64,000 bases of DNA, from positions 7,800-71,799 of the forward strand of contig JAKALT010000003.1 in assembly GCA_021813125.1 (NCBI GenBank), in the 5' to 3' direction. The translations under genes were made by a program, and so were the position numbers. Positions 20 through 61,448 of the stretch are shown here, one piece after another; the stretch's first letter is position 1, and every line of letters starts with the position of its first letter. This DNA is from a bacterium (GTDB lineage Bacteria > Patescibacteriota > Microgenomatia > Curtissbacterales > GWA2-41-24). The notes under the pieces are model-generated. The model saw only the letters and a list, made by a program, of their open reading frames with translations. It ran no database searches and was not told where the DNA came from.

Positions 20-1102
20 TTACACTCCCCAGACGCCTGATCCGTAATTTTTGACAAATCCCGAAAGTTCCATCAAAGAAAGTGCCGCCGATACTTTTTC
101 TATCGGCAATCTAGCTTCCTTGGCGATTGCATCAATATGCTTCGTTCCCCCATCCAAAATTGATAAAATCAACGCCTGATCCTTGTCTTTTGGTTTCTGG
201 TTCCTGGTCTCTGGTAACTGGTCTCTTTTCCTACTAATATCCAGCACCTCCAAAATATCCTCCGCGACTGTCGCCACATGCACCCCATCTTTTATCAGGT
301 TATTCGTCCCCTCGCTGGTTTTAGAAGTCACAAGCCCGGGCACTGCAAACACTTCCCTACCTTGCTCTGCCGCATAACCTGCGGTGATTAATGACCCAGA
401 ATCGACAGCCGCTTCTGTTACCAAAACTCCAAGAGACAATCCACTAATGATGCGGTTTCTGGCCGTAAAATTGTTCGGCAAGGCAGGGAACCCAAGCGGA
501 AATTCACTAATCAACGCCCCGTTTTTTACGACATCCTCCGCCAAGTTTCGGTTTTGGGGCGGGTAAATATTATCTAGCCCTGATCCAAGAACGGCTATTG
601 TCCGCCCACCGCTATCAAGTGCCATTCTATGAGCTACTGAATCTATCCCCCGCGCCAAACCGCTGATTATAGTCAGTCCATTCTTCGAAAGATCAAACAC
701 CAATTTCTCCGTTATCTGTCTTCCGTAAATCGTCGCATTACGGGAACCAACAACAGCTACAGCCAAATCATCGGCAGGAAGCAAATTTCCCCGGAAATAC
801 AAAACCGCGGGGCAGGCTTCCAGTTGACGCAAATTCGCAGGATAATCACGGTCAATCTTGGCGACTACTTTAATCCCCATCGCGTAAACTTTTTCAAGAT
901 AAATCTTCGGATCTACTTTATTTCGAAAATCGACTATCGATGCCTTAGTCTTTGCGTCAATCTTTAGCGAATTAATTTCTCCATCCGACGCGTCCCAAAA
1001 ATTCTTGAGCGATTTAAACTTTTTAAAAATATAAGAAAATGTCTGCGACCCGACCCCACCAATCGCACTCGTCGCCACCCAATAGGCCAATTCTCTGTTC
1101 AT
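20..1102 (-). CDS. dprA: DNA processing protein DprA (Smf)
   Basis: 360 aa protein with Rossmann-like DprA core (LVTEAAVDSGSLITAGYAAEQGREVFAVPG), an N-terminal SAM-like region and a C-terminal winged-helix tail. It carries an in-frame CCAG-heptad repeat (DQLPETRNQKP) in the linker before the C-terminal domain. Confidence 0.8.
   Translation of the reverse strand: MNRELAYWVATSAIGGVGSQTFSYIFKKFKSLKNFWDASDGEINSLKIDAKTKASIVDFRNKVDPKIYLEKVYAMGIKVVAKIDRDYPANLRQLEACPAVLYFRGNLLPADDLAVAVVGSRNATIYGRQITEKLVFDLSKNGLTIISGLARGIDSVAHRMALDSGGRTIAVLGSGLDNIYPPQNRNLAEDVVKNGALISEFPLGFPALPNNFTARNRIISGLSLGVLVTEAAVDSGSLITAGYAAEQGREVFAVPGLVTSKTSEGTNNLIKDGVHVATVAEDILEVLDISRKRDQLPETRNQKPKDKDQALILSILDGGTKHIDAIAKEARLPIEKVSAALSLMELSGFVKNYGSGVWGV
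194..225. repeat. CCAG-heptad repeat copy (CTGG orientation on the + strand), in-frame in dprA
   Basis: TTTCTGG TTCCTGG TCTCTGG TAACTGG. Its reverse complement contains GACCAGTTACCAGAGACCAG. Confidence 0.6.
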
Positions 1103-7947: not shown

Positions 7948-8034
7948 AATCGTAAATCTAAAACATTAGATTGTAAATGCTTTTTAAGGACAGTCCTTCA
8001 ATACTAAGGGCTGTCCTTGTCCTAAAAACTTTAA

Positions 8035-20630: not shown

Positions 20631-22619
20631 GTGACTGGTTCACTTGAAAACTATTTGAAAAAAGGTATTGATTTCTGCCTTTTAGCTCTTGCCGTTGCAA
20701 CCCCTTTTATTTTTACAACCCAAACAACGGAACTATTTGAAGTTCCTAAAATGTTTTTCGTTTATTTGGTTTCAACATTGCTCTTCTTCCTGCTGGTTTC
20801 CAAATCTTTAATAGAAAGAAAAATTACATTTCCAATTGGCCCGGCAACAATTGCCTTTGGTATTTTTCTTCTGACCCAAATTGCCTCGACCATAACATCG
20901 CAAGACAAGTATCTTTCAATCTTTGGCTACCCTACGCGCCTAAACGGCGGGCTGCTTTCGCTAATTTCCTATTTTGTGATCTTTATTGCGGCAATTACCC
21001 AACTTGATAAAATTCGCGCAAACCGAATTCTTTTGGCTCTGGTAATTTCCGCAACGGCCGTGTCGCTATGGGGCATCCCTGCCCATTTCGGTTTCGACCC
21101 TTCTTGTTACGTTTTAACGGGAAACCTCAATTCCGGCTGCTGGACTGCAGACTTCAATCCGATGCTTAGGATTTTCTCTACCTTAGGCCAACCGAATTGG
21201 CTTGCGTCTTACTTGGTCTTGGCCTTACCGATCTCGCTCACCCACTTTCTACTTTTTAAATCCAGTAAGGCAAAACTTTTCTTTGGGGCTGCCGCGGCAT
21301 TAATTTTTATGGCATTAGTTTTAACAACTTCGCGGGCCGGAATTCTTGGCGCAGTAATCTCCATTGCGATTTTTGCTGCCTTTCTTGGCGGAAAACTGCT
21401 GAAGGAAAATCTGAAAATCGTAGCTGGAATTCTGGCAGTATTTGTTGTCATTTGGCTGGCATTCGGAACAGCCTTAACTTCCAGAATTGCAGAAGCCCTA
21501 ACGGCCAACAAATCCAAAATCAGCTCGCCGCTTGCAAATACCCTAACAAAACCAAGCCAGTCTGCGCTAACTACCGGCGGAACCGAATCCAGCCAAATCC
21601 GCTTTATCGTCTGGCAGGGTGCTTTAAAAGTTTTCCAAAGGTGGCCGATTTTGGGAAGCGGCCCGGAAACTTTCGTTAACAGCTATTACCTTTTCCGCCC
21701 GGCCACCCACAACCAAACCACCGAATGGAAATTCTTCTACAACAAAGCCCACAACGAATTCCTAAACTATCTTGCAACAACCGGGGTCGTTGGTCTTCTC
21801 GGATATTTAGGGCTGCTTCTGGCAATATTCTGGCAGCTTGCCAAAAAAGCGGCAGGAGAAAAATCAACGCTTGCGGCTTTAGCCGGATACCAGGTAACTA
21901 TCTTTTTCGGTTTCTCGACAGTTGCCACTCAAACTGTTTTTTTCTTGGCAGCCGCATCCGCACTCGCCGCAACCGGGGTTGAAAAAACTAAAACGCAAAG
22001 TCTAAAACTTGAAAAAATTCCATTGTATACTGCTGTCTCTTTAACGGCTGTTTTTTCACTATACCTTTTAACATTCATCTTAAGGTTGGCACTTGCCGAC
22101 ACCATCCAAAAACGTGCCGAAAGTTACCAGGAAACCGCACCAAGCCGAGCTCTTATAATATTCGACAACGCCCAAACCGCCTCACCTGCCGATAATCCTT
22201 ATTTGTCATCAGCTTTTGCCTACGCCCTGGCTGCATATGCAACGGACGTGAAGGATGAAAATTCCGCCCAAAAATTGGTAAACCGCGCAGATGCTCTTGC
22301 CCGCGCAACACAAAAAATAGCTCCCAACAATTTCCTGACAACATTAGACATTGCCAAAACCTACCTGCTTCTTTCCCAAAAAAATGAAAAATTCCAAGGC
22401 CAGGCCGAACATTTTGCCCAAAAGCTTCCGCAAATGGCTCCAACTTACCCTGTTTCTTACCTGCAACTTGCAAAAACACAAATAGCCCTAGACAAAAAAG
22501 CTGATGCTCAAAAGTCACTCCAAACCGCACTCGAGCTAAGGCCGGATTACGCAGAAGCCAAAGAGCTACTTGATCAGCTAAATAGTCACCAGCAACCAGA
22601 GACCAGCAACCAGAAATAA
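20631..22619 (+). CDS. polytopic membrane protein with O-antigen ligase-like (Wzy_C-type) core and a C-terminal TPR-like region
   Basis: 662 aa with more than 10 predicted TM helices and a large periplasmic loop region, followed by an alpha-helical repeat region (AKTYLLLSQKNEKFQGQAEHFAQKL..LQTALELRPDYAEAKELL). This architecture is typical of Wzy_C/O-antigen-ligase-like proteins. A CCAG-heptad repeat is encoded in-frame at the C-terminus (QQPETSNQK). Confidence 0.55.
   Translation: MTGSLENYLKKGIDFCLLALAVATPFIFTTQTTELFEVPKMFFVYLVSTLLFFLLVSKSLIERKITFPIGPATIAFGIFLLTQIASTITSQDKYLSIFGYPTRLNGGLLSLISYFVIFIAAITQLDKIRANRILLALVISATAVSLWGIPAHFGFDPSCYVLTGNLNSGCWTADFNPMLRIFSTLGQPNWLASYLVLALPISLTHFLLFKSSKAKLFFGAAAALIFMALVLTTSRAGILGAVISIAIFAAFLGGKLLKENLKIVAGILAVFVVIWLAFGTALTSRIAEALTANKSKISSPLANTLTKPSQSALTTGGTESSQIRFIVWQGALKVFQRWPILGSGPETFVNSYYLFRPATHNQTTEWKFFYNKAHNEFLNYLATTGVVGLLGYLGLLLAIFWQLAKKAAGEKSTLAALAGYQVTIFFGFSTVATQTVFFLAAASALAATGVEKTKTQSLKLEKIPLYTAVSLTAVFSLYLLTFILRLALADTIQKRAESYQETAPSRALIIFDNAQTASPADNPYLSSAFAYALAAYATDVKDENSAQKLVNRADALARATQKIAPNNFLTTLDIAKTYLLLSQKNEKFQGQAEHFAQKLPQMAPTYPVSYLQLAKTQIALDKKADAQKSLQTALELRPDYAEAKELLDQLNSHQQPETSNQK
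22586..22614. repeat. CCAG-heptad repeat copy at the 3' end of the Wzy-like gene
   Basis: CACCAGCAACCAGAGACCAGCAACCAG. Confidence 0.6.
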
Positions 22620-22982
22620 ATGGACAAAGCGAATAAAGGATATCGAAATTTAATTGCCTGGCAGTTTGCAAATAAACTGGCACACGAAATTTATGATGCG
22701 ACAGCAGATTTTCCAAAACAAGAAGTGTTCAGTTTAACAAGCCAAATGAAAAGAGCAGCAGTGTCAGTTCCGGCAAACATTGCAGAAGGTTACATGAGAA
22801 AAAGTCAAAAAGAAAAAAGGCGTTTTTATAACATATCTCTCGGATCGCTAACTGAACTTGAGTACTATATAGACTTTGCTTTTGAAAGAAGTTATTATAA
22901 AAATACAATTTATAACAAATTGTCTGCCCTTCAAACTGAAACCGCCAAGATTCTTACAGGTTTAACAAAATCTCTAAAATAA
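22620..22982 (+). CDS. four-helix-bundle protein (23S rRNA intervening-sequence protein family)
   Basis: 120 aa reading GYRNLIAWQFANKLAHEIYDATADFPKQEVFSLTSQMKRAAVSVPANIAEGYMRKSQKEKRRFYNISLGSLTELEYY, the characteristic signature of this family. It starts immediately after the upstream stop codon. Confidence 0.6.
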   Translation: MDKANKGYRNLIAWQFANKLAHEIYDATADFPKQEVFSLTSQMKRAAVSVPANIAEGYMRKSQKEKRRFYNISLGSLTELEYYIDFAFERSYYKNTIYNKLSALQTETAKILTGLTKSLK

Positions 22983-23013: not shown

Positions 23014-24333
23014 ATGACACTAACAAAAACCGATCCCCAAATCGCCAAGCTTATTCTTGCCGAAGAAAAGCGCCAAAAAGAAGTATTGGAAATGATCCCT
23101 TCCGAAAATTACGCGTCTGCTGCAGTTAGGTCGGCACTCGGAACGGTCCTCAACAACAAATACTCCGAGGGCTATCCCAAAAAAAGGTATTACCAGGGCA
23201 ATAAAATTGTAGACGAAGTTGAATTGCTGGCAATCGAACGAGCCAAAAAACTTTTCGGTGTTCCCTATGTTAATGTCCAGGCGCTTTCAGGATCACCTGC
23301 CAACTTGGCGGTTTATGTTGCCCTCCTGGAACCGCAAAAGGATAAAATCATGGGTCTTTCTTTGGCTTTTGGCGGACATTTAACCCATGGCCAGCCGCAA
23401 TCCGTCACCGGAAAGTTTTTCAAATCGGTCCTTTATGAACTAGGAAAAGACGGCAGATTGGATTTTGCAGCAATCGAAAAACAGGCATTAAAAGAAAAAC
23501 CCAAAATTATAGTCTGCGGCTTTACCGCATATCCGAGAATTATCGACTTTAAAAAGTTTGCGGCTATCGCCGATAAAGTAGGTGCCTACCTGCTTGCCGA
23601 CATTTCCCACATCGCCGGCCTTGTTGTTGCCGGTGTTCACCCGTCTCCCGCTCCGTATGCTCACATCATTACCACCACAACCCACAAAACTTTGCGAGGG
23701 CCGCGCGGGGCTTTAATTATGGTAACCGCAAAAGGTTTGAAAAAAGACGCGGACTTGGGCAAAAAAATCGACAGTGCCATTATCCCCGGAATTCAGGGAG
23801 GCCCGCACGACGACCAAACCGCCGCAATTGCCGTTGCACTGAAAGAAGCGGCAACTCCTGCTTTCAAAAAATATTCCGCTCAGATTGTTAAAAACACTAA
23901 AACGCTGGCCACAGAATTGACAAAATTCGGCTTCAACCTTGTTTCCGGCGGCTCGGACAATCACTTGATATTAATTGATTTAAAAAACAAAGGTGTAAAC
24001 GGTGCAATCGCAGCCTATGCGCTGGAAGTTGCCAATATTGTCGTCAACAAAAACGGGGTTCCTTTTGATACTATGCCCCCATTCTATCCATCCGGCATCC
24101 GTCTTGGAACTCCGGCCATTACCACCCGCGGAATGAAAGAAGCCGAAATGAAAAAAATCGCCGCCTGGATGAGGCGGGTTATAGAAGAAGTCAAAAATGA
24201 AAAACTTCCACAAGATAAAGAAAAACGCTCGAATTTTCTGAAAAACTTCCGCGACCGCGCCAACAAAAACAAAAATCTCCTGCAAATCGCAAAAGAGGTT
24301 AAAACCTTGACCGGCAAATTCCTAATACCATGA
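23014..24333 (+). CDS. glyA: serine hydroxymethyltransferase
   Basis: 439 aa with the SHMT N-terminal signature (PSENYASAAVRSALGTVLNNKYSEGYP) and the PLP-lysine region TTTTHKTLRGPRGALIM. Confidence 0.9.
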   Translation: MTLTKTDPQIAKLILAEEKRQKEVLEMIPSENYASAAVRSALGTVLNNKYSEGYPKKRYYQGNKIVDEVELLAIERAKKLFGVPYVNVQALSGSPANLAVYVALLEPQKDKIMGLSLAFGGHLTHGQPQSVTGKFFKSVLYELGKDGRLDFAAIEKQALKEKPKIIVCGFTAYPRIIDFKKFAAIADKVGAYLLADISHIAGLVVAGVHPSPAPYAHIITTTTHKTLRGPRGALIMVTAKGLKKDADLGKKIDSAIIPGIQGGPHDDQTAAIAVALKEAATPAFKKYSAQIVKNTKTLATELTKFGFNLVSGGSDNHLILIDLKNKGVNGAIAAYALEVANIVVNKNGVPFDTMPPFYPSGIRLGTPAITTRGMKEAEMKKIAAWMRRVIEEVKNEKLPQDKEKRSNFLKNFRDRANKNKNLLQIAKEVKTLTGKFLIP

Positions 24334-24644
24334 CCCGAGAAAGACTAGGACCAGAAGTCCAACCCCAACAAGCGCAAAATGAAGCAATAAGGCTTAGGAG
24401 ACAAGCCCAAAATTGGTATAGAATAGCCACTTTATTCTTGGTTCTAGGGATCACGACTACAATGGGTGGACTAATTATGGGAAGCGAAGGTAGAAAAGAC
24501 AAAGCATCTGAAATAGTAACAACAACCGGCCTCTCACTCCTGGTAGGAGGCGCGGCAACAACTAGAATAGCTGTAAACCTGGACACGCGGGCCAAATCTA
24601 AAGAAAACACCCAAAAAGCTATAAACAAAATTAATTCTGTGTAA
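24330..24644 (+). CDS. hypothetical small membrane protein
   Basis: 104 aa with two hydrophobic segments. Its Gly/Ala/Thr-rich TM segments are similar to those of the next two ORFs, so the three are probably paralogs. Confidence 0.35.
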   Translation: MTRERLGPEVQPQQAQNEAIRLRRQAQNWYRIATLFLVLGITTTMGGLIMGSEGRKDKASEIVTTTGLSLLVGGAATTRIAVNLDTRAKSKENTQKAINKINSV

Positions 24645-24677
24645 ACAAACCGATTTCCGATCCCGCAAAATCCAGCC

Positions 24678-24908
24678 ATGGCCGAACGATACATTCCAAG
24701 AAAAGCAAGGATTCTAGGAGAAGTAACAATGGTAGTTGCCGGAATCGCAACAGCCACAGCCGGCGGTTTTATTGTTCATCAAAATGCCGAGAAGAACGAC
24801 AATAAAGCAGTAGCCGGAAGCATAGTCATGCTTGCGGGTGGTACAGCGACAATGCTCGCCGGCGGAATGCTAACAAGAGAGGATCAAAATTCAAAACCAC
24901 AAGAATAA
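24678..24908 (+). CDS. hypothetical small membrane protein
   Basis: 76 aa with two TM segments (VVAGIATATAGGF and IVMLAGGTATMLAGG). Confidence 0.35.
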   Translation: MAERYIPRKARILGEVTMVVAGIATATAGGFIVHQNAEKNDNKAVAGSIVMLAGGTATMLAGGMLTREDQNSKPQE

Positions 24909-24983
24909 CTTTTGAAACTTAAAAAGTATCTATAAAAAGAGAGTCCTTGACCAGCAGGTTCCCAATACCTTAAAATTCCCTCC

Positions 24984-25499
24984 GTGAGTGAACGTCGATT
25001 ACATATTCTCAGGGCAGGCACTCTTATAGCAACACCACTTGCAGTAGTTGGGTCGGTAGCTTTTGCCCACGGCAAGAACGTAGAAAATTCCGGTTTCAAG
25101 AACAGACAAACCCAGAAGGACGCTATTTCCAGACAAGTCGACGAACTTTTCCCGTCTTATGACCAAACCGCAGTTGAAAATTCATCACTACTTATTACCC
25201 ATATCCAGCACGAACTAGCCACTTTAATTGCGGAAGGAAAAATTGACGACGCGAAAAACACTTTAAATGATAACCGTGAGGGCATTAAACAACTAGGTCT
25301 AATTCAAGAAAACGAAGGTTTAAAAAACAGCATCAAATCGGAAATCATCGATAAAAAAGATCTCACAGAGCGCGGTAAAGGTAGTTGGTATACCCTTGCA
25401 GGTGCCAGTGCCATTGTTGCTGGAGCCATGTCTTTCCTTTCCGGAGCAGTAGGAGAAGCCAGCTACGTACTCACGCGAAGGAAACAAAAATCAGCCTAA
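24984..25499 (+). CDS. hypothetical protein with C-terminal TM segment (GTG start)
   Basis: 171 aa with a C-terminal LAGASAIVAGAMSFLSGAVG segment similar to the two preceding small ORFs. Confidence 0.35.
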   Translation: MSERRLHILRAGTLIATPLAVVGSVAFAHGKNVENSGFKNRQTQKDAISRQVDELFPSYDQTAVENSSLLITHIQHELATLIAEGKIDDAKNTLNDNREGIKQLGLIQENEGLKNSIKSEIIDKKDLTERGKGSWYTLAGASAIVAGAMSFLSGAVGEASYVLTRRKQKSA

Positions 25500-25502
25500 A
25501 GC

Positions 25503-25521
25503 ACTGGTAACTGGTCACTGG
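25503..25521. repeat. CCAG-heptad repeat copy (CTGG orientation) in the spacer upstream of folD
   Basis: CTGGTAACTGGTCACTGG followed by AAACTATAAACTAT. Confidence 0.55.
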
Positions 25522-25539
25522 AAACTATAAACTATCCTC

Positions 25540-26469
25540 ATGGCACAAATCTTAGATGGTCGCGCAGTTCGCGATGCAATACTGGAAGATCTTAAAAGCC
25601 AGATCACAAAACTCGAAACCAAACCAAAACTGGTAATCATCCAAGTCGGCGATAACCCCGAAAGTAATACTTACATCGGTCAAAAAATAAAATTCGGCGA
25701 AAAAATCGGTGCAATTGCCGAACTTAAAAAATTTCCTGTAGATATCAGTCAAAAAGATCTAGAATCTATCATCTATCATCTAAACTCTGACCCGACTGTC
25801 CACGGCATCATTATCCAGCTTCCTATTTCCGATCATCTGGACAAAGACGCATTGATAGAACTTATCGACCCCAAAAAAGATGTGGATGGCCTTACGTCTG
25901 CCAACCAAAAACTTTTGGAAGAAAATAGCCCCGATGCTTTAGTTCCGGCAACAGCCAAAGGCGTAATCACAATTTTAGATTTTTATAAAATCCAGATTAA
26001 GGGAAAAAAAGCAGCAGTCGTCGGCCGATCCAAACTTGTGGGCGCACCAGTTGCCAGCCTTTTGAGAAATCTGGGAGCCGAAGTTACCGTCGGCCACAGC
26101 CAAACACCGGATTTAACCGCCGTCACAAAACCTGCAGACATTATTGTAGTAGCCGTCGGCAAACCGAATTTAATCGGCAAAGAGCATGTTTCACCGGGAC
26201 AAACAATAATCGACGTCGGGATAAATGTAGTTGACCAGTTACCAGAGACCAGAGACCAGACAGAAGGTCAGGAATCAGAAAAGGTCAGGCCTTGGAAAAC
26301 TGAAAGGCCTGACCTTAAGAGTACGCGCAAGCTCGTTGGCGACGTAAACTTTGCGGAAGTCGAACCAATTGTCGCCGCAATCACCCCCGTCCCCGGCGGC
26401 GTCGGCCCCATGACCGTTGCATCTTTATTTGAAAACTTCCTCGAAGCCTACAAACAACAAAATGCTTGA
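25540..26469 (+). CDS. folD: bifunctional methylenetetrahydrofolate dehydrogenase / methenyl-THF cyclohydrolase
   Basis: MAQILDGRAVRDAILEDLK...VIIQVGDNPESNTYIGQKIK N-terminus and the PVPGGVGPMTVASL C-terminal motif. It carries an atypical insertion of about 27 aa between GIN and KLVGDV (see findings). Confidence 0.85.
   Translation: MAQILDGRAVRDAILEDLKSQITKLETKPKLVIIQVGDNPESNTYIGQKIKFGEKIGAIAELKKFPVDISQKDLESIIYHLNSDPTVHGIIIQLPISDHLDKDALIELIDPKKDVDGLTSANQKLLEENSPDALVPATAKGVITILDFYKIQIKGKKAAVVGRSKLVGAPVASLLRNLGAEVTVGHSQTPDLTAVTKPADIIVVAVGKPNLIGKEHVSPGQTIIDVGINVVDQLPETRDQTEGQESEKVRPWKTERPDLKSTRKLVGDVNFAEVEPIVAAITPVPGGVGPMTVASLFENFLEAYKQQNA
26233..26260. repeat. CCAG-heptad repeat copy in-frame inside folD
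   Basis: GACCAGTTACCAGAGACCAGAGACCAG encodes DQLPETRDQ. The same 20-mer occurs in dprA. Confidence 0.6.
26281..26317. repeat. palindromic hairpin element copy (in-frame inside folD)
   Basis: AAGGTCAGGCC-TTGGAAAACTGAA-AGGCCTGACCTT, an 11-bp perfect stem. Confidence 0.6.
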
Positions 26470-27184: not shown

Positions 27185-28888
27185 ATGTATGCCGATATTG
27201 TTGTCTTAACTTACCAGGCTCCTGACATAGATTACTTTACTTACAAAATCCCCGACAATTTAAAAGTTAAAATCGGGCAACTTGTCGAAGTGCCTTTTGG
27301 CAAAAGAAGCCCCACTGGCATTGTGCTTAGCACAAGCACAGAAGTTCGAAATTCGAAATTAGAAATTCGAAATTTAAAGGAGGTATCAAAAGTTATCTCA
27401 TCAGACCCCATACTCCTCCCTTACCAAGTTGATCTACTCAGATGGATGTCCAATTATTACCTTGCCACGATGGTTAACTGTTTGGAAGTAATGATACCCA
27501 AAATTCCCCCGCAAAAGGCCAGGCCTTTTGCTACAGACATACCTAAGTTAAGGCCTGGCCTTAGCCACGAGCCCCAATCCCTCATCCTCGTCCCCACAAT
27601 AAACCGCATCCCGGAAACTTTGGCCAAATTTCCCAAAGCTAAAAATTACGCCGTTTACCATAACGAACTGAAACCGGCCGGAAAATTCGCAACCTGGATG
27701 AAAATTTTATCCGATGATGCAGATTATGTCTTCGGCTCCCGCTCCGCAATATTTTCTCCATGCCCCAACCTCAAAGAAATAATAATTTACGACGAACACG
27801 ACGGTGCCTACAAAGACGAACGGTCACCGTATTTCGATACCTTAACAGTTGCCCAAAAAATTGCGGCGTTAACCCGAGCCGAGCTAAAAATAGTCGACCC
27901 CTCCCCCAGAATCACCACGTATTTTGCGCTTAAAAGCCGTATTAAAATCCAAAACTTTTCCCAAAAAACAACAGTAATCAACATGCTAAACGAAAGGCAA
28001 AGCCAAAGGCACAGCCCCATAAGTTTCGACTTGGAAGAAGAAATCAAAAATATCCTAGAAAAGGAAGGTCGTGTGTTTCTTTTTTTAAACAAAAAAAAGG
28101 AATCGGGCCATATGTTTTGCAAGGCGTGCAAAAATTCCGAGTTTCTACAAAAACAACCGGAAACTTGCCCGAATTGTAACTCTGCGGACATTTTTTGGAA
28201 TGTACTAAATATCGAATCTCTTGCCGCCGAAGTCAAAAAACTGTTTTCCAAAACGCAAGTCAACTTAATTTTCCAAAAGCAGTCAGCAGTAAGCAGTCAG
28301 CAGTTAACAATAGATATTGGCACCGCCTATTCCCTCTATGCCCCACTTTTAAAAAAGTATGATCTTGTCGCCCACATTCAAACGGATTCGTTAATCAACA
28401 TCGTAGATTTCAATTCCCAGGAAAAACTTTATAGCCAAATCACGACGCTTAAAAAACTTCTAAAACCAACCGGCAAGCTCTTCCTCCAAACCTACAATCC
28501 GCAAAATCCGGCCATTGAATTTGCATCAAATGGAAATTATGGAGCCTTTTTTACAGGCGAGTTATCGCAAAGAAAGCAGCTTTTCTACCCGCCTTTTGGA
28601 ATGCTTTTCAAGCTAACAGTAAAAGGCAAAAACAAACAGAAGATTTTAAAGGAAGCCGAAAATCTCGCGAGTCAACTTCGATCAACGATAAACGATTCAC
28701 GATTGACGATCTTGGGCCCATACGAATCTGTCTTTGTGCAAAAAACACCAAGCTGTCATATAATCTGCAAATACTCTCTCAAAACTTATAATCTGCAGGA
28801 AAGAGAAAAAGCTGTCCAATATTTTAAATCCATAAGCAGTTTGCCGAAAAACTGGCAACTTGTTGTCGAACCTGATTCAATAAACTAA
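27185..28888 (+). CDS. primosomal protein N' (PriA)-like, with degenerate helicase motifs
   Basis: N-terminal 3'-DNA-binding-domain pattern (VEVPFGKRSPTGIVL), helicase motif Ia/II equivalents (LILVPTINRIPE, IIIYDEHDGAYK, GSRSAIF), a Cys4 zinc region (CKACKN...CPNC) and PriA-like C-terminal segments. No GxGKT Walker A and no AGRAGR-type motif VI were found. Confidence 0.55.
   Translation: MYADIVVLTYQAPDIDYFTYKIPDNLKVKIGQLVEVPFGKRSPTGIVLSTSTEVRNSKLEIRNLKEVSKVISSDPILLPYQVDLLRWMSNYYLATMVNCLEVMIPKIPPQKARPFATDIPKLRPGLSHEPQSLILVPTINRIPETLAKFPKAKNYAVYHNELKPAGKFATWMKILSDDADYVFGSRSAIFSPCPNLKEIIIYDEHDGAYKDERSPYFDTLTVAQKIAALTRAELKIVDPSPRITTYFALKSRIKIQNFSQKTTVINMLNERQSQRHSPISFDLEEEIKNILEKEGRVFLFLNKKKESGHMFCKACKNSEFLQKQPETCPNCNSADIFWNVLNIESLAAEVKKLFSKTQVNLIFQKQSAVSSQQLTIDIGTAYSLYAPLLKKYDLVAHIQTDSLINIVDFNSQEKLYSQITTLKKLLKPTGKLFLQTYNPQNPAIEFASNGNYGAFFTGELSQRKQLFYPPFGMLFKLTVKGKNKQKILKEAENLASQLRSTINDSRLTILGPYESVFVQKTPSCHIICKYSLKTYNLQEREKAVQYFKSISSLPKNWQLVVEPDSIN
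27524..27565. repeat. palindromic hairpin element copy (in-frame inside the PriA-like gene)
   Basis: AAAAGGCCAGGCCTTTT...TTAAGGCCTGGCCTTA. Confidence 0.55.
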
Positions 28889-33837: not shown

Positions 33838-33886
33838 AAGGTCAGGCCTTAACCCAGGTTAATCATTTGTAAAGGCCTGACCTTTA
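33838..33886. repeat. palindromic hairpin element copy (intergenic, between convergent genes)
   Basis: AAGGTCAGGCCTTA...TAAAGGCCTGACCTTT. Confidence 0.6.
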
Positions 33887-37818: not shown

Positions 37819-39047
37819 AAAAAGTTGTCAGTTCATCCAAGAACCAAAATGGCCAGGTTTTAATAATTGCTATAATTTTTATGGCAGTCATCCTGATTCT
37901 CTCGGCAGCAATGCTCTCTAAAGTCGGTAATTACCTTCGTTTCGGCGCAAATTCCGTCCAAGGCGAACAGGCAATTGAGTTAGCCGAAGCAGGCGTAGAC
38001 AACACCATCTGGCAACTTAATAAAAACGGAGGAATTTGCCCTGCTGCGTGTACAAACGAAACACAATTGGGAGCAATTGGGACATTTAAAGTGACCGTTG
38101 TCGACAACTCTCTTACCCTAAAAACAGTCACATCAACTGGTTACGTGCCAAATTCCACAAATCCCAAAAAGAAAAGGACAATAAAAGTTCAAGTCCAGGT
38201 GGATAATACTCAAATTGCATTCCATTACGCAGCGCAGACCGGCGACGGAGGACTCTATATGTCAAATTCTGCATATATTGATGGTAGTGTTTATTCAAAC
38301 GGAAACATTTACTGGGGCGGCACAGGAAATAGTATGATAATCAACGGCGCAGCATATGCAGCAGGCCCAACAATCCAGTCCCCCCCTATAACTGTCAATG
38401 ACCCGCCGCCGCATCCAAATGCATCACCTCAACCGCTACCTACAGTTGATTATGCTCATTGGGAGGAAGAGTCAGTAAAAACAAACGACATAGTTACCTG
38501 TTCCCCTACATGCGTTATCAACAGCTCCCAGTCAATTGGTCCGCGTAAATACGTTGGCGACGTCACCATACAAAGTAACGTAACGATAACTGTTACAGGA
38601 CCCATCTGGGTAACAGGTAATTTCGCAATTGGAACTGGAAACGCCACTGTCAAGCCGGACCCAGGCTTTGGCTCAAACGGCGTAGTCTTACTTGTCGGTG
38701 ATCCAGCCAATCCCTCAAGCGGGAAAGTATCCTACACACAAGGCGGTACCTTTGAAACCACCGGTGCCAATCCGCCAGGGTACATACTTGTTGTTGCCCG
38801 TTCAAAAGCTGATGATGCAATAACTATTGCCCAATCTGGAGCAACAGCAATATTTTACGCGCTAGACGGCGGTGCCACCTTAACTCAATCTGCATCTGTT
38901 GCTGCCCTTGCTTCAAAAAAAGTGATAATGACACAAACCGCAAGTCTGCATTTTATAACCGGCCTTGGCAGTACGAGCTTTTCTTCCGGTCCCGGCGGAG
39001 CTTGGGTAATCAAAAAAGGCACATACAAGCAGACACTCTCTCTGTGA
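37815..39047 (+). CDS. PilX-N-like minor pilin / pilus assembly protein
   Basis: N-terminus SSKNQNGQVLIIAIIFMAVILILSAAMLS followed by GEQAIELAEAGVD resembles the PilX N-terminal domain. It overlaps the previous gene by 4 nt. Confidence 0.45.
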   Translation: MKKVVSSSKNQNGQVLIIAIIFMAVILILSAAMLSKVGNYLRFGANSVQGEQAIELAEAGVDNTIWQLNKNGGICPAACTNETQLGAIGTFKVTVVDNSLTLKTVTSTGYVPNSTNPKKKRTIKVQVQVDNTQIAFHYAAQTGDGGLYMSNSAYIDGSVYSNGNIYWGGTGNSMIINGAAYAAGPTIQSPPITVNDPPPHPNASPQPLPTVDYAHWEEESVKTNDIVTCSPTCVINSSQSIGPRKYVGDVTIQSNVTITVTGPIWVTGNFAIGTGNATVKPDPGFGSNGVVLLVGDPANPSSGKVSYTQGGTFETTGANPPGYILVVARSKADDAITIAQSGATAIFYALDGGATLTQSASVAALASKKVIMTQTASLHFITGLGSTSFSSGPGGAWVIKKGTYKQTLSL

Positions 39048-41257
39048 AACTCAACGTTTCGAAAAAAATTCTTGCCACAATCATAATCTCGATATTTCTG
39101 TTTCTTATTAAAACTAATTCTGCCTTAGCAGATAATTATAATTTAATACCAAATCCATCATTTGAATTCGGAACATCAAGCCCACTTGAATGGGAAACAA
39201 ATAATTCCTCTACATGTATTAATAGCCAAAACACACCCCAATCATCTTTTGAATGGTCATCAGAAATCACGCAAAGCGGCTCGCAATCGCTTGCTCTAAA
39301 AAACATCTACTGGGAAGATATCTATAATCCAGATATTCCTGGACTATGGATTACAAGCAACTACATTGAAACTCCCCGTAACCCAAAAGGGTATGAGTTC
39401 AGTACATGGGTATATGCTAGCAAAAATAACCACTCTATCTACCCCCGCCTTACTGTGTGTACCTATGACATAAATAACAAGCTTTCAACTCAAAGTGAAA
39501 TCACTTTAAATGAAATCCCAGAAGCTGAAACTTGGTTTGAACTAAAATCAGTGCTGATACTTTCCGACCCAAAGATTAAAATAATTCTTGGTTCTAGATG
39601 TTCTTATGAGCCTCCGCAGCAAACTGTACCACCATGTACAGGTTCTTTATGGTTTGACAATACAACAGTAAGACCTATTAACTCAATGATTGCACATACC
39701 TTTAACGATATAAATGAAGATAGTAACCTTAATTGGGGTGAAGAAAATTTAACGCAATGGGAAGTTTCATTGTATCAAGATAGCGACTGCACCAATAATC
39801 ACATCAAAACAACTGGCTGGACAAACAAAAACGGCGATATCATTTTCACCGTCTATAGTATCTTCCCTCCAACATCATTTCCACCAGGTAATTACTCAAT
39901 ACAGCAAACATTCAGAATGTTAAAAACAACCCCATATGCACACGTCGTAGATGCCCGAGATGAGGGATGGATTAACACTACACCAACCTGTCAAAACGTA
40001 ACCTTAAACGACGGGGAAACACCAGCAGTCTACTTCGGCAACTATAAAGCCCCTTCTTTCCCCTATCTCAGCCAGCTCGACCCGGCGTGGAAAGATCTAA
40101 CGTACGATCATGCATCCACCTCAAACCCGTTTTTTTGCGGAACAACAATTGGCGGTTGCGGATGCGCCATAACCTCTTCTGCAATGTTGCTTAAATACTA
40201 CGGAGTTACAAAAGCCCCGGACGGTTCAGAAACCAACCCCAACACCCTAAACACATGGCTGAAAAACAACAGCGGCTACGCTTTTGGCGCCCTAAAGTGG
40301 AATTCCATAGCCGCCTATTCCGTCAAAGCCAACGAGGTATTTGGAACCCAAAAAATCCGCTTTGTGGGAACCGGTGCAGCAAATGATTTTACAACTCTGG
40401 ATTCAGACCTATCCAACAGTAAACCCGACATCATCTCCGAACCCGGCCATTTTATCGTCGCAACCAAAAAGGACGGTACAGATTACGGAATCGCCGACCC
40501 TGCTTACAAAACCAGAACAACTCTGGCTTCCTATTCAAATAGTTTCACTGGAATAAGAAGGTACGAAAAAACCAATACCGACCTAAGCGCGATTTACATC
40601 TCAACCCCTACTCCGAACGATTTGTTTATCACCGACTCCCTGGGAAGATCCACCGGCAAAAATCCCGACACCGGTGAAATCTTAACCCAAATCCCCAATT
40701 CACATTATTTCGTTGAGCCCTCGTTTACAGACCAAACAGATCCCAACTCTCAAGTACCAAGCTCGGGTGTAACCACCCTTGTCATCATTAATCCGGGCGA
40801 GGGAACTTTCAACCTTAACTCTAAATTCGGCCCAATCGATATTTCTGCCTACGACACGCTCGGCAATATCCAAGTTAAAAATTTCTCAACTATCGAACCG
40901 GACACATTTGAACTAAATTACTCAGCAGTTACTGGATCCGATTTCAACGTTTATCAAAAAGTTTCTATCGACTTAAAACCTCAAAATTTGAATAAAGGGA
41001 ACGGGGTTTTCCCGCTGGTAATTAAATCCGACGATAACTTCAACGTCCAGGATATCGATTTTCAGTCAATACGACTTACACCTCCCCAAATCTCGCCTAT
41101 TAAGTTTCCGTTGTTAATTTCAAGTGGCAAAGATTCAAAAAAAGACATGCAAATTTTCTTTCTTGCAAGCCAAATTCCGCCAAACGAAAATCTTTGTTTA
41201 ACTGGCCTAACAGTCGATAATATCGCCTTCAAAAGCTGCAGCACTTTTCCCTTGTAA
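39002..41257 (+). CDS. large secreted protein with N-terminal CBM-like beta-sandwich motif and putative peptidase C39-like (papain-like) domain
   Basis: Signal-like ILATIIISIFLFLIKTNSALA and NLIPNPSFEFG...WE, which is reminiscent of CBM4/9-type domains. A CGCAITSSAMLLKYYGV segment resembles the catalytic Cys region of C39-like peptidases (NGCGPTSLAMVLSYYG). An alternative GTG start at 39044 overlaps the upstream stop as GTGA. Confidence 0.45.
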   Translation: MGNQKRHIQADTLSVKLNVSKKILATIIISIFLFLIKTNSALADNYNLIPNPSFEFGTSSPLEWETNNSSTCINSQNTPQSSFEWSSEITQSGSQSLALKNIYWEDIYNPDIPGLWITSNYIETPRNPKGYEFSTWVYASKNNHSIYPRLTVCTYDINNKLSTQSEITLNEIPEAETWFELKSVLILSDPKIKIILGSRCSYEPPQQTVPPCTGSLWFDNTTVRPINSMIAHTFNDINEDSNLNWGEENLTQWEVSLYQDSDCTNNHIKTTGWTNKNGDIIFTVYSIFPPTSFPPGNYSIQQTFRMLKTTPYAHVVDARDEGWINTTPTCQNVTLNDGETPAVYFGNYKAPSFPYLSQLDPAWKDLTYDHASTSNPFFCGTTIGGCGCAITSSAMLLKYYGVTKAPDGSETNPNTLNTWLKNNSGYAFGALKWNSIAAYSVKANEVFGTQKIRFVGTGAANDFTTLDSDLSNSKPDIISEPGHFIVATKKDGTDYGIADPAYKTRTTLASYSNSFTGIRRYEKTNTDLSAIYISTPTPNDLFITDSLGRSTGKNPDTGEILTQIPNSHYFVEPSFTDQTDPNSQVPSSGVTTLVIINPGEGTFNLNSKFGPIDISAYDTLGNIQVKNFSTIEPDTFELNYSAVTGSDFNVYQKVSIDLKPQNLNKGNGVFPLVIKSDDNFNVQDIDFQSIRLTPPQISPIKFPLLISSGKDSKKDMQIFFLASQIPPNENLCLTGLTVDNIAFKSCSTFPL

Positions 41258-41340
41258 AGGGCAGGCCTTTGTACAGCAAAATCATAGGTTAAGGCCTGCC
41301 CTTAGCTAAGGTACATGAAGGTCTAGGAGCCCTGACCTTA
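41256..41340. repeat. palindromic hairpin element copy plus a second short hairpin, downstream of the 751-aa gene
   Basis: AAAGGGCAGGCCTTTG...TTAAGGCCTGCCCTTA, followed by AAGGTCTAGGAGCCCTGACCTT. Confidence 0.6.
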
Positions 41341-41577: not shown

Positions 41578-41629
41578 TAAAGGGCAGGCCTTTGTGCAGC
41601 GAACTCCATTGGTTAAGGCCTGCCCTTAA
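41578..41629. repeat. palindromic hairpin element copy downstream of rpmG
   Basis: AAAGGGCAGGCCTTTG...TTAAGGCCTGCCCTTA. Its loop is similar to that of the copy at 41256. Confidence 0.6.
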
Positions 41630-41672: not shown

Positions 41673-44171
41673 GTGCACAGTATTCATCTCAAATCTAAAA
41701 TCTCAAATCTAAAATCTAAACTAGGTTTTACCTTAATCGAGGTAATGGTGGTTATTGCTATAATCGGCACTTTAGCCAGTATAACCACCTTCGCATTTGG
41801 CAAAAGCAGAGATAAGGGAAACGACGCAAGAAGAAAGGCGGATCTTAAAGCAATCCAGACCGCCGCCGTTTCCTATTACCAGGACCACAGCCAGTTCCCT
41901 CCGGATCCGGCAGCATACCCCGGAAATGTTTTTTCTTCGGACACGGGTGCCGGTTGGCTTCCGGGAATATCAAGCTACATCAACAAACTTCCAAAAGATC
42001 CGCTGCAGGCAGGCATACTTCATATGCTGGCAAGTGTCGCCGGAAATTCAATCCACACCAGCCAAAAACTGTTGGCAGGTATGTTTGCCAAATCAAGCCA
42101 AACGACAAAAGTCACACCTCAAGTTGCAGCAGATACAACTGTGACTTTAAGGCCAGCCGGCGTTGGCTCAAGTACTCAATGGACCCCAATCCCGTCCGCT
42201 CCAAATTATGCTAAGGTAAACGAAGCCGTAGCAGACGGTGCTACTTATGTAAAATCGAATACTAATGGATTCCTCGATCTCTATAAAATCGATCCAAACA
42301 CAATCAGCGGTACGATTACAGGAATTACCGTCAAAGTTGTAACCCGCGGCGACAGTGGCCAAGACCCGATGAGTTATATCTATATCCGCACAGGCGGTAC
42401 CAACTATGCAAGTACCGGCTTCCAAACAGGATCAACCGGAAGTTTCTCAAGTAGCAGCGCAAGTTGGACAACAAATCCCAAAACCGGTGTGGCATGGACA
42501 GCATCGGATATTACCGCACTTGAAATCGGCATACTCAATAGTGGAGGAGCCAGCACCACAGAATTCCGCTATTTAACCCAAGAATATGTGGAGGTAACTT
42601 ACACACCGACTGGCACAACAGTCAATATCAACGCCAACACAACAGACGACACCATCAGGTTTTATGCTAGTGGATACTATCCACCCGACCCCGGCGGGGG
42701 CTGTAGTATTGCTCCTCCTGCTGGATCAACCTACTCTCTGACAGGTCAATACTATACCGGCGGCGGTTATTACAAATACAGAAACTATCTCGCCTTTGAC
42801 ACTTCTTCAGTCCCGGCTGGCTCAACAATAAATTCGGTAACCCTGACGCAAACGGTCTACCTTAAAAACTTGGGGACTAATTTTAATCTCCTAGTCTTAA
42901 ATTATAACTGGGGACCTACTGTTGACTGCACCAGATGGGGAGGTTCACCACCTACCGCCCCACAAGTTGGCAGCCTTGCCACAACAACCCTACCTGCCGT
43001 AGGGTCCACCTTTACAATGACGCTGGCAAATTCTGTTGTTAACACTGGTGGAACAACCTATTTAATGCTCATAAGCGATAGGGATATGGCCAACACAACC
43101 CCAACAGGATTAGAAGCCTTTGGTTCATATAGCGCAGAATCGGCCACCCCACCCCAAATAAGTATCAATTATTCGCCGCCAGCCATGCCGACAGTGACAA
43201 CACATACAGCAACCGGTGTCACATCCACTCAAGCCACTTTAAATGGCAGTGCGACCCCATTTGGGGCAGGGACTAACGGATGGTTTCGCTACGACACCGT
43301 AAACCCAGGTACCTGCAATGACACTTTCGGCACAAGAGCACCATTGAGCGGTTTCAATGATCTTACATTATCAGCAAGCTATTCACAAACTGTCGGCAGC
43401 CTTACACCATCAAGAACTTATTACTTTTGCGCCCTTGCTTCAAATGCCGGCGGCACCGGCTACGGAAGTGTCCTTTCGTTCACAACCTCAGCATCCGCAC
43501 CTACCGGCTCTATATCAGCCTCTCCGACAACCATACCAAGTGGTTTTAGCTCGTCAGTTACCTGGGGCTCCACAGGCGCCACGAGCTGCACTGTTTCACC
43601 AACAGGTTGGACCGGCACTAGCAATCCCGGCCAGTCAACCGGGCCTTTAACATCAACTACCACTTACACCCTAAACTGTACCGGGCCGGGCGGAAGCTCT
43701 ACGCCTGTTTCCGTCACAGTTACGGTCGGCGGTGCAGCAACACCAACTGATATCAAGGCTAATGGGCTTAACGGGCCTATTACCGTAAGCAAAGACGATT
43801 CCGTTGGTATAAGCTGGACTTCCGGCAACATGACAAGTTGTACCGTAACCGGCGGCCCCGGCGGAAGCGGCACTTCCGGCGCCTTTTCCTGGATAGCAAC
43901 AACCACAACTACTTTCAATCTCTCTTGCACAGGGCCTGCCGGCGGCCAAACAGACAGTGTAACTGTAAATGTCGGCGCGGCCGCAGCTTGTCCAAACCTC
44001 AAAAATGTTTATTGCTACATCGTCAACACCGACAGAAGCGCATTTGTTATCTGGGCCGAGCTCGACAACACCAGCGACTCGCAAATCTGGGATCAGCAAA
44101 ACGCCATTTGTAAACGCACACCGCCTTCGGGAACTCCGTACAACTACTGCGTCGAGTCCTCATCGCTTTAA
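41673..44171 (+). CDS. large type IV pilin-like protein (class III signal peptide, 832 aa, Thr/Gly/Ser-rich C-terminal region)
   Basis: KSKLGFTLIEVMVVIAIIGTLASI is a canonical prepilin cleavage/methylation motif. It is followed by a long beta-rich Thr/Ser/Gly-rich region with repeated TGxTSxxAT segments. Confidence 0.65.
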   Translation: MHSIHLKSKISNLKSKLGFTLIEVMVVIAIIGTLASITTFAFGKSRDKGNDARRKADLKAIQTAAVSYYQDHSQFPPDPAAYPGNVFSSDTGAGWLPGISSYINKLPKDPLQAGILHMLASVAGNSIHTSQKLLAGMFAKSSQTTKVTPQVAADTTVTLRPAGVGSSTQWTPIPSAPNYAKVNEAVADGATYVKSNTNGFLDLYKIDPNTISGTITGITVKVVTRGDSGQDPMSYIYIRTGGTNYASTGFQTGSTGSFSSSSASWTTNPKTGVAWTASDITALEIGILNSGGASTTEFRYLTQEYVEVTYTPTGTTVNINANTTDDTIRFYASGYYPPDPGGGCSIAPPAGSTYSLTGQYYTGGGYYKYRNYLAFDTSSVPAGSTINSVTLTQTVYLKNLGTNFNLLVLNYNWGPTVDCTRWGGSPPTAPQVGSLATTTLPAVGSTFTMTLANSVVNTGGTTYLMLISDRDMANTTPTGLEAFGSYSAESATPPQISINYSPPAMPTVTTHTATGVTSTQATLNGSATPFGAGTNGWFRYDTVNPGTCNDTFGTRAPLSGFNDLTLSASYSQTVGSLTPSRTYYFCALASNAGGTGYGSVLSFTTSASAPTGSISASPTTIPSGFSSSVTWGSTGATSCTVSPTGWTGTSNPGQSTGPLTSTTTYTLNCTGPGGSSTPVSVTVTVGGAATPTDIKANGLNGPITVSKDDSVGISWTSGNMTSCTVTGGPGGSGTSGAFSWIATTTTTFNLSCTGPAGGQTDSVTVNVGAAAACPNLKNVYCYIVNTDRSAFVIWAELDNTSDSQIWDQQNAICKRTPPSGTPYNYCVESSSL

Positions 44172-48077: not shown

Positions 48078-48127
48078 AAAGGGCAGGCCTTAGCTAAGAC
48101 TATTCTATACAAAGGCCTTCCCTTAAC
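48078..48127. repeat. palindromic hairpin element copy (intergenic, imperfect)
   Basis: AAAGGGCAGGCCTTA...AAAGGCCTTCCCTTA. Confidence 0.5.
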
Positions 48128-57875: not shown

Positions 57876-58301
57876 ATGGCTAAGAAAATAAAGGCAATTG
57901 TCAAATTAAATGTAAAAGGCGGTCAGGCAACCGCTGCCCCGCCTGTAGGCCCGGCTCTTTCACAACATGGCTTACCAATTATGGATTTTGTCAAAAGTTT
58001 TAACGACAGAACCAAAGACCAGCAGGGCACCATTTTGCCTGTAGTCGTCACAATTTACGAAGACCGCACTTTTTCCTTTTTAGTTAAAAAACCGCCAGTT
58101 GCCATTCTTATCAAAAAAGCTCTCAATCTGGAAAAAGCCGCTAAAACTCCGGGTAAGCAAACGGTCGCAAAAATGCAAAAGGCTCAAGCAAAAAAAATAG
58201 CAGAAGAAAAAATGGAAGATTTAAACACAAAAGATATCGAAGCGGCCATTAAAATAGTTGAAGGCACCGCTCGCAGTATGGGTGTGGAGGTCACGGAATA
58301 A
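57876..58301 (+). CDS. rplK: 50S ribosomal protein L11
   Basis: AIVKLNVKGGQATAAPPVGPALSQHGLPIMDFVKSFN is the L11 signature. Confidence 0.9.
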   Translation: MAKKIKAIVKLNVKGGQATAAPPVGPALSQHGLPIMDFVKSFNDRTKDQQGTILPVVVTIYEDRTFSFLVKKPPVAILIKKALNLEKAAKTPGKQTVAKMQKAQAKKIAEEKMEDLNTKDIEAAIKIVEGTARSMGVEVTE

Positions 58302-59233: not shown

Positions 59234-59261
59234 ATTCCGCCAAAATCAAGTCCTTGACAGT

Positions 59262-59295
59262 AAGCCTTGCATCTGATAATTTTCCCCTGCTAATT
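59262..59295 (+). promoter_or_regulatory. candidate sigma70-like promoter in the rplA-rplJ spacer
   Basis: TTGACA, then 14-15 nt, then TGATAAT. Confidence 0.3.
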
Positions 59296-59576: not shown

Positions 59577-59686
59577 TCCGAAAGTTTCTTAAAAGCCTCA
59601 CGAAACTAACTTTCTGGGGCTTTTTTGTTGCAAAGACATTAGTCAAAAATCTACAATTATGATACGGGAAAGGTACACAACATCAT

Positions 59687-61400: not shown

Positions 61401-61448
61401 AAAGGGCAGGCCTTTGTTGGGTATTTTCAACGTAAAGACCTGCCCTTA
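61401..61448. repeat. palindromic hairpin element copy downstream of rplL
   Basis: AAAGGGCAGGCCTTTG...AAAGACCTGCCCTTA. It likely also acts as the rplL terminator. Confidence 0.55.

Follow-up and report, generated by a model that had tools for sequence, protein, structure and literature searches.

In-frame heptanucleotide repeats and a dispersed palindrome in the folD gene of a Curtissbacteria-like bacterium

Rickettsia palindromic elements (RPEs; Ogata et al., 2000) are repeats of approximately 105–150 bp, each of which encodes a conserved peptide, and lie in frame within housekeeping genes (PMC10969869, PMC3184786). A second class of short repeat, the heptameric one, is represented by the TAACTGA repeats of the Beggiatoaceae (PMC4679880) and by an excess of heptamers (PMC4692102). 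Here we compare with these and related systems a locus from a Curtissbacteria-like bacterium of the candidate phyla radiation (CPR; Patescibacteria): a 64,000-nucleotide stretch of contig JAKALT010000003.1 (assembly GCA_021813125.1, positions 7,800 to 71,799; “the window” hereafter means the whole of this stretch), in which the folD gene carries an extra in-frame segment composed of heptanucleotide repeats and palindromic DNA. Comparison of the sequences makes it probable that this segment of FolD consists of stacked genomic repeats, selfish or neutral, that are common in the Curtissbacteria-like Microgenomates lineage and are here translated and tolerated. The anatomy of the segment, the membership of its hairpin in a family, the in-frame copies in many housekeeping genes, the variation among orthologs, the structural position and the base-pair covariation are matters of direct observation.

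Both Pfam domains of FolD score above threshold (PF00763, 116 bits, E = 1e-33; PF02882, 184 bits, E = 1.5e-54), and the phmmer alignment to PDB chains falls into two blocks, query residues 4–231 matching chain residues 16–246 and query residues 264–307 matching chain residues 250–293. Between the blocks there are 32 FolD residues (232–263) where the best-matching solved FolDs have 3, an excess of approximately 29 residues according to two alignments; measured against P0011, the nearest insert-free ortholog, with a loop of 8 residues, the excess is 26. An in-frame insertion had been noted at this place in a first-pass annotation made from the sequence, and the split in the PDB alignments bears this out, along with the translation quoted there. 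The segment is translated as IDVGINVVDQLPETRDQTEGQESEKVRPWKTERPDLKSTRKLVGDV, and the predicted peptide stretch of the insert region includes EKVRPWKTERPDLK.

Three parts make up the segment (Table 1), where the first-pass annotation had counted two. The first is the CCAG-type heptad array that had been proposed at this position, for which Tandem Repeats Finder (TRF) returned a period of 7, 4.0 copies and the unit GACCAGA. The second, not previously recognized, lies within the 20 nt that separate the array from the hairpin and is a left arm of this hairpin family, solo and decayed; its position is occupied by the intact left arm AAGGTCAGGCCTTGGCAGAA in the orthologous loci (numbered with an L) L018/L106, L006 and L009. 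The third part is a complete hairpin, previously described as an 11-bp stem around 13 nt and as ending at 26317: the perfect pairing stands, with the stem extending to 13 bp (AAGGTCAGGCCTT/AAGGCCTGACCTT), the loop reduced to 10 nt (GGAAAACTGA) and the end at 26316. Folded as DNA, the hairpin has an energy of −13.9 kcal/mol (z = −6.8); folded as RNA, its 111-nt region has z = −3.7. The folD coding sequence (CDS) was recovered in identical form from three other assemblies (GCA_027346405.1, ERZ27237587 and ERZ27237541), and the insert is therefore not an assembly error, an objection that the annotation had itself raised.

The hairpin belongs to a family with arms of 13 nt, AAGGNCAGGCCTT-loop-AAGGCCTGNCCTT. 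That it was kin to palindromes in the intergenic DNA had been suspected from inspection, and is confirmed by counts: the 11-mer AAGGTCAGGCC occurs 15 times in the window when up to one mismatch is allowed, against 0.77 expected, none of 100 shuffles reaching 15, and full hairpins are found elsewhere in the window. A covariance model made from 16 hairpin copies detected eight loci in the 64 kb, or about one per 8 kb, of which two are coding (folD and priA) and six intergenic. Several of the intergenic copies begin just 3′ of a stop codon, and L004 has two copies at the site syntenic to 33838..33884. The loops fall into two length classes, S type (10–12 nt) and L type (20–23 nt), giving elements of 34–50 nt overall; the ends of the L-type loop are conserved and asymmetric (T-GTGCAG...GGTT), and the arms are kept while the L-type loops diverge. 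Pairing is maintained throughout the family: of 116 non-redundant copies, 114 have a free centre base that complements the one opposite, and an alignment drawn from loci picked for FolD, not for hairpins, has 97.8% of its cells paired, with stem position 5 seen as U-A, G-C, C-G and A-U. Nearly all arms are paired and enclose family-specific loops, solo arms being rare and decayed. The flanks of 119 copies contain neither a target-site duplication nor conserved bases, and pairing ends at the arms; in having no target-site duplication the family is unlike a MITE (miniature inverted-repeat transposable element).

Roughly a quarter of the perfect copies (34/125) lie inside long open reading frames (ORFs), belonging to at least 12 protein families. 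Among the proteins encoded by the host genes are FolD, PriA, aspartyl- and cysteinyl-tRNA synthetases (AspRS, CysRS), LepA, the CCA-adding enzyme, RecF, Obg, a Mur ligase and NusA; a SufC-like ABC ATPase is also a host, with the hairpin at one common site in three species. Comparison of LepA and Obg with solved structures places an alignment gap at or overlapping the hairpin-coded peptide. Within ORFs the copies are found in frames 0, 1 and 2 (15, 15 and 4 copies, respectively) and in both orientations, and the encoded peptides therefore differ. The arms are nearly stop-free in every frame, the sole exception being a TGA in one right-arm frame when N = A, so that a frame-preserving insertion merely lengthens the peptide. 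Relative to transcription, copy orientation is unbiased (within ORFs, 16 copies are sense and 11 antisense; for spacers the counts are 35 and 32), as would suit a selfish element acting at the level of DNA better than an RNA signal tied to one strand. A strand-specific RNA function had been considered in view of L-type copies in the window and L004 that seemed to run with transcription, and was rejected on this larger set.

Set beside the described systems, the family shares with the RPEs the dispersal of palindromes in spacers and in frame in unrelated housekeeping genes, the addition of a fold-compatible peptide and the occurrence in small genomes; unlike them, the elements are simple hairpins of 36–49 nt defined by arms of 13 nt, use all three reading frames in either orientation, are stacked with heptads and have CPR hosts. 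Judged by size and variable frame use, these hairpins are not members of the RPEs. With repetitive extragenic palindromic (REP) sequences and REP doublets forming hairpins (REPINs) they have in common a length of approximately 35–50 nt, a G+C-rich and covarying stem, tens of copies per genome and a position often just downstream of genes. However, REPs are extragenic by definition, whereas the present elements are intragenic in the proportion given above (in the window, 2/8); they also differ from REPs in having no conserved 5′ tetranucleotide and in having arms that are identical across class-level lineages, and no REP-associated tyrosine transposase (RAYT) was found among 20 window ORFs or between close hairpin pairs.

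The distribution of the hairpin is broad within the CPR. A scan of GTDB for perfect arms, taking one genome for each of 185,579 species, yielded 92 stretches, nearly all in metagenome-assembled genomes (MAGs) of CPR/Patescibacteria; the lineages represented are Gottesman-, Curtiss-, Collier-, Woyke-, Sacchari-, Jorgensen- and Paceibacteria, and the 1.13-Mb genome JAKAJD01 has no fewer than 30 perfect copies. Three MAGs titled as uncultured Gammaproteobacteria or Bdellovibrionales (CAYTEJ01, CAZEDQ01 and CAZRER01; loci among L011–L082) also have the family. These taxonomic titles are probably mistaken. That of CAZEDQ01, at least, is doubtful: its locus L018 encodes a Curtissbacteria-like FolD that is 77% identical to the FolD of the window, composite insert included. 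We could not identify any perfect hairpin copy in the IMG/VR viral contigs, and on this ground a phage or mobile-element origin was rejected. Neither is the hairpin a known RNA family: Rfam has no match at gathering thresholds, and at relaxed thresholds returns only sub-threshold matches to generic hairpins. A full-text search of the literature, limited in coverage, found no account of palindromic or MITE-like repeats in proteins of CPR/Patescibacteria.

Among the 120 best FolD relatives (50–80% identity; the named ones are Candidatus Curtissbacteria, at 54–59% identity), the stretch from GIN to LVGDV varies from 4 to 51 residues, and an alignment of the kind that the first-pass annotation had advised proved informative, in that several orthologs have the hairpin at the equal codon position. 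It is from these named relatives, and from synteny, that the bacterium is placed with Curtissbacteria-like Microgenomates. At the level of DNA, for which orthologs were taken from syntenic glyA-folD-priA-def-fmt loci, the S hairpin is seen there in L004, L006, L007 and L018/L106; the cores of the FolD orthologs sharing the position are 75–82% identical. The folD of L018/L106 (77%) has the entire composite of heptads, arm and S hairpin, which was thus inherited from an ancestor common to this species and one other at least. That distant lineages should have orthologs carrying the insert had been expected to tell against the claim, and orthologs carrying it do exist at this level of core identity; the origin of the segment from repeats still stands, and the loop emerges as a lineage-wide hot spot. 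On the evidence of these sequences, then, the insert is neither private to this genome nor recent, having been inherited at a site prone to such additions.

Several further states of the hairpin are found in close orthologs. In the folD of L005 and L009 it is flipped, with the loop TAAGTTTTCC and a compensatory arm change, GGCC to GACC/GGTC, and in this position the flipped element encodes another peptide, KVRPLSFPRSDLE; the peptide KVRPWKTERPDLK is found again in several FolD orthologs, and in some the S hairpin is also read in another frame. The hairpin of L006 contains a nested insertion of 30 nt, and the folD of L004 has an extra solo arm and a second hairpin, of L type. There is no hairpin in the folD of L008 (8-residue loop) and L010, nor in P0011 and P0008, and on a FolD tree calculated with the loop left out the hairpin states are patchy.

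The more distant Curtissbacteria FolDs have heptads only in this loop, and because of this the heptad array looks to be the older occupant, with the hairpins added later. In L109 the heptads AACACGA AACAAGA AACAGGA AACAAGA AACCGGA give rise to a common “KPETEP” motif; that this motif of the distant FolDs might be a decayed S hairpin was rejected, the DNA consisting of heptads. The loop of L110 has heptads together with an unrelated hairpin, CCCTCC..GGAGGG, encoding PSFAKASEG. Other repeat-derived peptides, among them ...EIASxxx...RNDK, QSTIVDSQ, PSFAKASEG and (D)EPLTINH, occupy the FolD loop of P0009, P0033, P0075, P0083, P0096 and P0120, with L057 also among the loci concerned, and (D)EPLTINH is also inserted in the LepA of L049; several further repeat families seem to behave like the hairpin family studied here.

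The PriA linker is variable too: it contains an L-type hairpin in the window, L and S hairpins in L004, an S hairpin in L007 and a flipped S hairpin in L005, L101, L103 and L104, while in L006, L009 and L010 there is another palindrome, encoding the peptide VHSSWKKENITTNYELS. The FolD insert peptide is also present in this unrelated linker. Within a genome the folD and priA copies of the S hairpin match, with the G variant in forward orientation in L004 and L007 and the T variant flipped in L005/Ga0082335. This concordance suggests gene conversion between copies approximately 2 kb apart, although it concerns three genomes only and is not significant.

To place the insert in the structure, as the annotation had recommended, an AlphaFold2 model of FolD was calculated from a 93-sequence alignment. 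The mean predicted local distance difference test score (pLDDT) is 91.8; residues 233–262, approximately, score 48–69, with scores above 90 elsewhere, and the insert is modelled as disordered, at the tip of a β-hairpin between strands 228–232 and 263–267. The core is intact, and in Foldseek comparisons with solved FolDs has a template modelling (TM) score of 0.95 and a root-mean-square deviation of 1.4–1.7 Å. The insert corresponds to loop 231–243 of the Pseudomonas aeruginosa enzyme (PaFolD), which is flexible, is disordered in one chain, can fold over the active site and is not part of the dimer interface formed by α5, α7 and β6 (PMC3338484); the same loop that takes up 3 residues in solved FolDs takes up 32 here. 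A surface-loop position had been proposed for the insert, and this is right in so far as the loop is tolerant and FolD is otherwise intact; the loop is not remote, however, since it adjoins the active site, which its counterpart in PaFolD is able to cover. For the catalytic and cofactor motifs (S..Y..K, QLP, DVDG, GRS and PGGVGPMT), all 93 sequences, that of the window included, share S42, Y45, K49, Q93, P95, D116, G162-R163-S164 and the PGG.GP.T motif without variation. It is plausible that FolD is still active with its insert, a reading based only on the conserved catalytic and NADP motifs, the confident model of the core and tolerance in relatives; because the loop borders the active site, the insert may alter the kinetics of the enzyme.

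Heptad repeats are a trait of these genomes at large. When the window is compared with itself for exact tandem matches of 12 nt or more, three have period 7 and four have period 14; the remaining periods between 4 and 15 yield none, and neither do shuffled sequences. In 857 kb of related CPR loci there are 88 arrays of period 7, whereas no other period between 4 and 12, the codon-compatible 6, 9 and 12 among them, has more than 0–20. The units are diverse (GACCAGA, ACTGGTA, AGCAGTC, ACTTATC, ATCTAAA, TTAATAG and others). The resemblance to the heptameric repeats of cyanobacteria (short tandemly repeated repetitive sequences, STRRs) and Beggiatoaceae lies in the dispersal of short 7-nt arrays that are far commoner than arrays of other periods; unlike those repeats, the present ones have different units, and several arrays are translated in protein loops, linkers and C-termini. 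We take the units to be distinct from the cyanobacterial STRR families in particular. An array is found no more than 60 nt away from seven hairpin copies, where 2.4 would be expected; FolD accounts for four of these (window, L018, L106 and L101), of which L018 and L106 have the same sequence and so are not independent, and we make no claim that hairpins target heptad arrays.

Longer tandem repeats are also present in the window. The L7/L12 protein encoded by rplL (60781..61377) has an N-terminal extension of approximately 74 residues, of low complexity and rich in E, K and A, which is encoded by 21-nt tandem repeats (60816–60954) ahead of the dimerisation domain. The ORF 58301..59233 (310 residues) upstream of rplL, presumably rplA encoding L1, starts with a long K/E/Q-rich stretch. 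In the apparent spacer 59233–59687 there is a GAC/GAA-rich tandem array (59505–59568) with periods 3, 6, 12 and 21, and no ORF of 50 or more residues covers it.

Table 1. Coordinates of folD, of the parts of its extra segment, and of further hairpins and heptad arrays in the window
Feature	Position	Strand or orientation	Sequence, product or encoded peptide	Basis or context
folD CDS	25540..26469	+	309 residues; bifunctional methylene-tetrahydrofolate dehydrogenase/cyclohydrolase	ORF list; Pfam; PDB FolD match, E=1e-58; AlphaFold2 model
Extra loop segment of FolD (residues 232–263)	26233..26328	+		PDB alignments break here; low pLDDT; 4–51 residues in orthologs
Heptad array in folD	26233..26260	+	GACCAGT TACCAGA GACCAGA GACCAGA; DQLPETRDQ	TRF; exact period-7 run; array also in L018/L106
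Decayed solo left arm of hairpin family	26264..26280	+	AAGGTCAGGAATCAGAA; EGQESE	Alignment with intact ortholog arm
S-type hairpin in folD	26281..26316	+	loop GGAAAACTGA; KVRPWKTERPDL	Arms 26281–26293 and 26304–26316
L-type hairpin (22-nt loop), in frame in priA (27185..28888)	27515..27562	+	KARPFATDIPKLRPGL	Linker after 3′BD domain (Pfam)
L-type hairpin, intergenic	33838..33884			Between convergent genes (M50 peptidase/LytR_C)
L-type hairpin, intergenic	41257..41303			Begins directly after stop codon of ORF 39002..41257
L-type hairpin, intergenic	41580..41627			Upstream of ORF 41673..44171
L-type hairpin, intergenic, one arm mismatch	48079..48124
L-type hairpin, intergenic, one arm mismatch	61402..61447			Downstream of rplL (60781..61377)
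Variant hairpin, intergenic	7986..8018		AAGGACAGTCCTT-N7-AAGGGCTGTCCTT	28 bits
CCAG-type heptad array, in frame in DprA interdomain linker	191..226	-	RDQLPETRNQKP	TRF; Pfam domains end at 276, start at 297
CCAG-type heptad array, C-terminal end of Wzy_C protein	22588..22616	+	…HQQPETSNQK*	TRF; translation; Pfam
Heptad array in spacer just upstream of folD	25503..25526	opposite to array within folD	ACTGGTA ACTGGTC ACTGGAA	TRF

Between glyA and folD (24330..25499) the window has three small ORFs of 104, 76 and 171 residues, apparently membrane proteins, with no Pfam match, and the gene content of this spacer varies among syntenic relatives. A gene for a four-helix bundle of the 23S-rRNA-IVP/bAvd-like kind (22620..22982; PF05635, E=2e-35) is flanked by the Wzy_C gene and glyA; L009 has it too, and L004–L006 lack it at that place.

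According to the explanation we favour, two kinds of genomic repeat would have come to be stacked in one loop. One is the CCAGA-type heptanucleotide microsatellite, found in this loop in the majority of Curtissbacteria FolDs and again in spacers and other proteins; the other, a family of REP/MITE-like palindromes with 13-nt arms, is represented in folD by one decayed solo arm and one complete S hairpin. The hairpin family may spread as a non-autonomous element, and copies would survive where the protein can bear them, in flexible loops and interdomain linkers such as the mobile β-hairpin loop of FolD and the linker that follows the 3′-DNA-binding domain of PriA. The segment would be translated and FolD would remain active. 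Once inherited, the composite would have changed further through decay of arms, insertions nested within it, flips of the hairpin loop and units gained or lost, the flips perhaps arising by recombination or template switching between the arms.

Several observations weigh against this explanation. There is no transposase or RAYT among 20 window ORFs or between hairpin pairs 0.5–1.4 kb apart, the ORFs between close pairs being ordinary genes (for example, rplJ/rplL and an acetyltransferase-like gene); with no transposase, no target-site duplication and no conserved flanks, mobility is read from dispersal only. The S hairpin is also conserved beyond what tolerance would lead one to expect, in that the copies of L004 and L018 are identical to that of the window at 36/36 nt where the folD cores are approximately 75% identical, and approximately 55% at third positions. 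Under pure neutral tolerance the chance of 36/36 would be around 0.75^36 = 3e-5, and the identity therefore points to constraint, gene conversion or recent re-insertion. Moreover, the same arms occur in several class-level CPR lineages, which is unusual for REP-type families. Gene conversion between copies, recent re-insertion or selection on a DNA motif could each account for the conservation of the hairpin; since palindromes are able to pair with their donor whichever way round it lies, gene conversion would also account for the flips.

Selection on a DNA motif leads to the most serious of the alternatives, one that we nevertheless regard as unlikely: the hairpin would be kept as a nucleic-acid element, either a binding site for a CPR protein or a signal of the DNA-uptake type, with the 13-nt arm as the recognised unit and the coding copies maintained, not merely tolerated. 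The DNA uptake sequences (DUS) of Neisseria and the uptake signal sequences (USS) of Pasteurellaceae offer a parallel, being over-represented 12–13-mers with single-base “dialects” between lineages, often found behind genes in inverted pairs and borne by proteins in their variable regions. The identity of the S hairpin at 36/36 nt, its unpaired loop included, speaks for such an element, as do the compensatory arm changes of L005 and L009, the four pair types at stem position 5, the arms shared by several CPR classes and conserved where the L-type loops have diverged, and the copies placed just after stop codons; and, since the window encodes DprA and a pilin-like protein, competence machinery is present. 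Yet the hairpin is patchy in the FolD of close relatives and is missing altogether from P0011, P0008 and L010, and its random orientation relative to transcription tells against a strand-specific RNA role; Rfam has no family for it. Propagation of the whole element fits better than single uptake motifs with arms that are mostly paired around loops of family-specific lengths and ends, and with solo arms that are few and decayed. By comparison with DUS and USS, for which single copies spread evenly over both strands would be typical, the pairing of the arms around such loops sets the family apart, as does its lower density, the hairpins of the window numbering one in about 8 kb.

A more specific form of this proposal, to which we give slightly less credence, is that the 13-nt arm AAGGNCAGGCCTT would be a sequence-specific signal conserved in several CPR classes, with hairpins actively maintained even in essential genes by molecular drive or DNA-level selection. 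Its putative reader could be a domesticated single-strand transposase or a DNA-uptake/recombination system of these nucleotide-scavenging bacteria. If true, such a signal would account both for the 36/36 identity of the folD hairpins and for the agreement, within each genome, between folD and priA copies in loop variant and orientation.

Selection might instead act on amino acids, the inserted peptide being an adaptive feature of the protein such as a longer active-site lid or a docking segment, and this we consider very unlikely. The site is, to be sure, a flexible loop that in PaFolD is able to cover the active site, and KVRPWKTERPDLK recurs in several orthologs; however, conservation is seen at the level of DNA, synonymous positions too, the flipped element gives KVRPLSFPRSDLE in the same place, the same peptide is found in the unrelated linker of PriA, close orthologs make do with loops of 8 residues, and the segment is predicted to be disordered.

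It is more improbable still that the heptad array makes folD a contingency locus, in which the gain or loss of 7-nt units would shift the frame and turn the enzyme off or on. Seven is not a multiple of three, three near-perfect units are present, and heptameric repeats drive phase variation in other bacteria, that of HMW1A by heptanucleotide repeats being reported for Haemophilus influenzae. The array is just 3–4 units long, though, and all five contigs with this protein encode the same sequence, the CDS being identical in the three further assemblies; there are no frameshifted variants in the 90% cluster, and folD stands in a conserved one-carbon/fMet cluster (glyA, folD, def, fmt), a setting in which one would hardly expect switching. 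Finally, next to no weight attaches to the insert being an artefact, whether an assembly chimera, a pseudogene or an intron- or intein-like segment removed before the mature protein: nothing but the unusual loop length speaks for it, given the identical CDS in independent assemblies, the intact frame with all FolD motifs, the related inserts in dozens of orthologs, and a length of 96 nt without intein or intron signatures or a match in Rfam, which makes removal implausible.

If the segment is indeed a tolerated stack of genomic repeats, the CPR/Patescibacteria would be a second clear case, after Rickettsia, of short selfish palindromes written into the proteins of reduced genomes, with the particularity that REP-sized elements are here combined with an unusual excess of 7-nt microsatellites. 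This would account for part of the odd insertions and length variation in CPR housekeeping proteins, and would call for caution from annotators and structure predictors, as such segments would be repeat-derived filler. The sites at which copies are tolerated would, by the same reading, provide natural maps of “permissive sites” for FolD, PriA, LepA and Obg.

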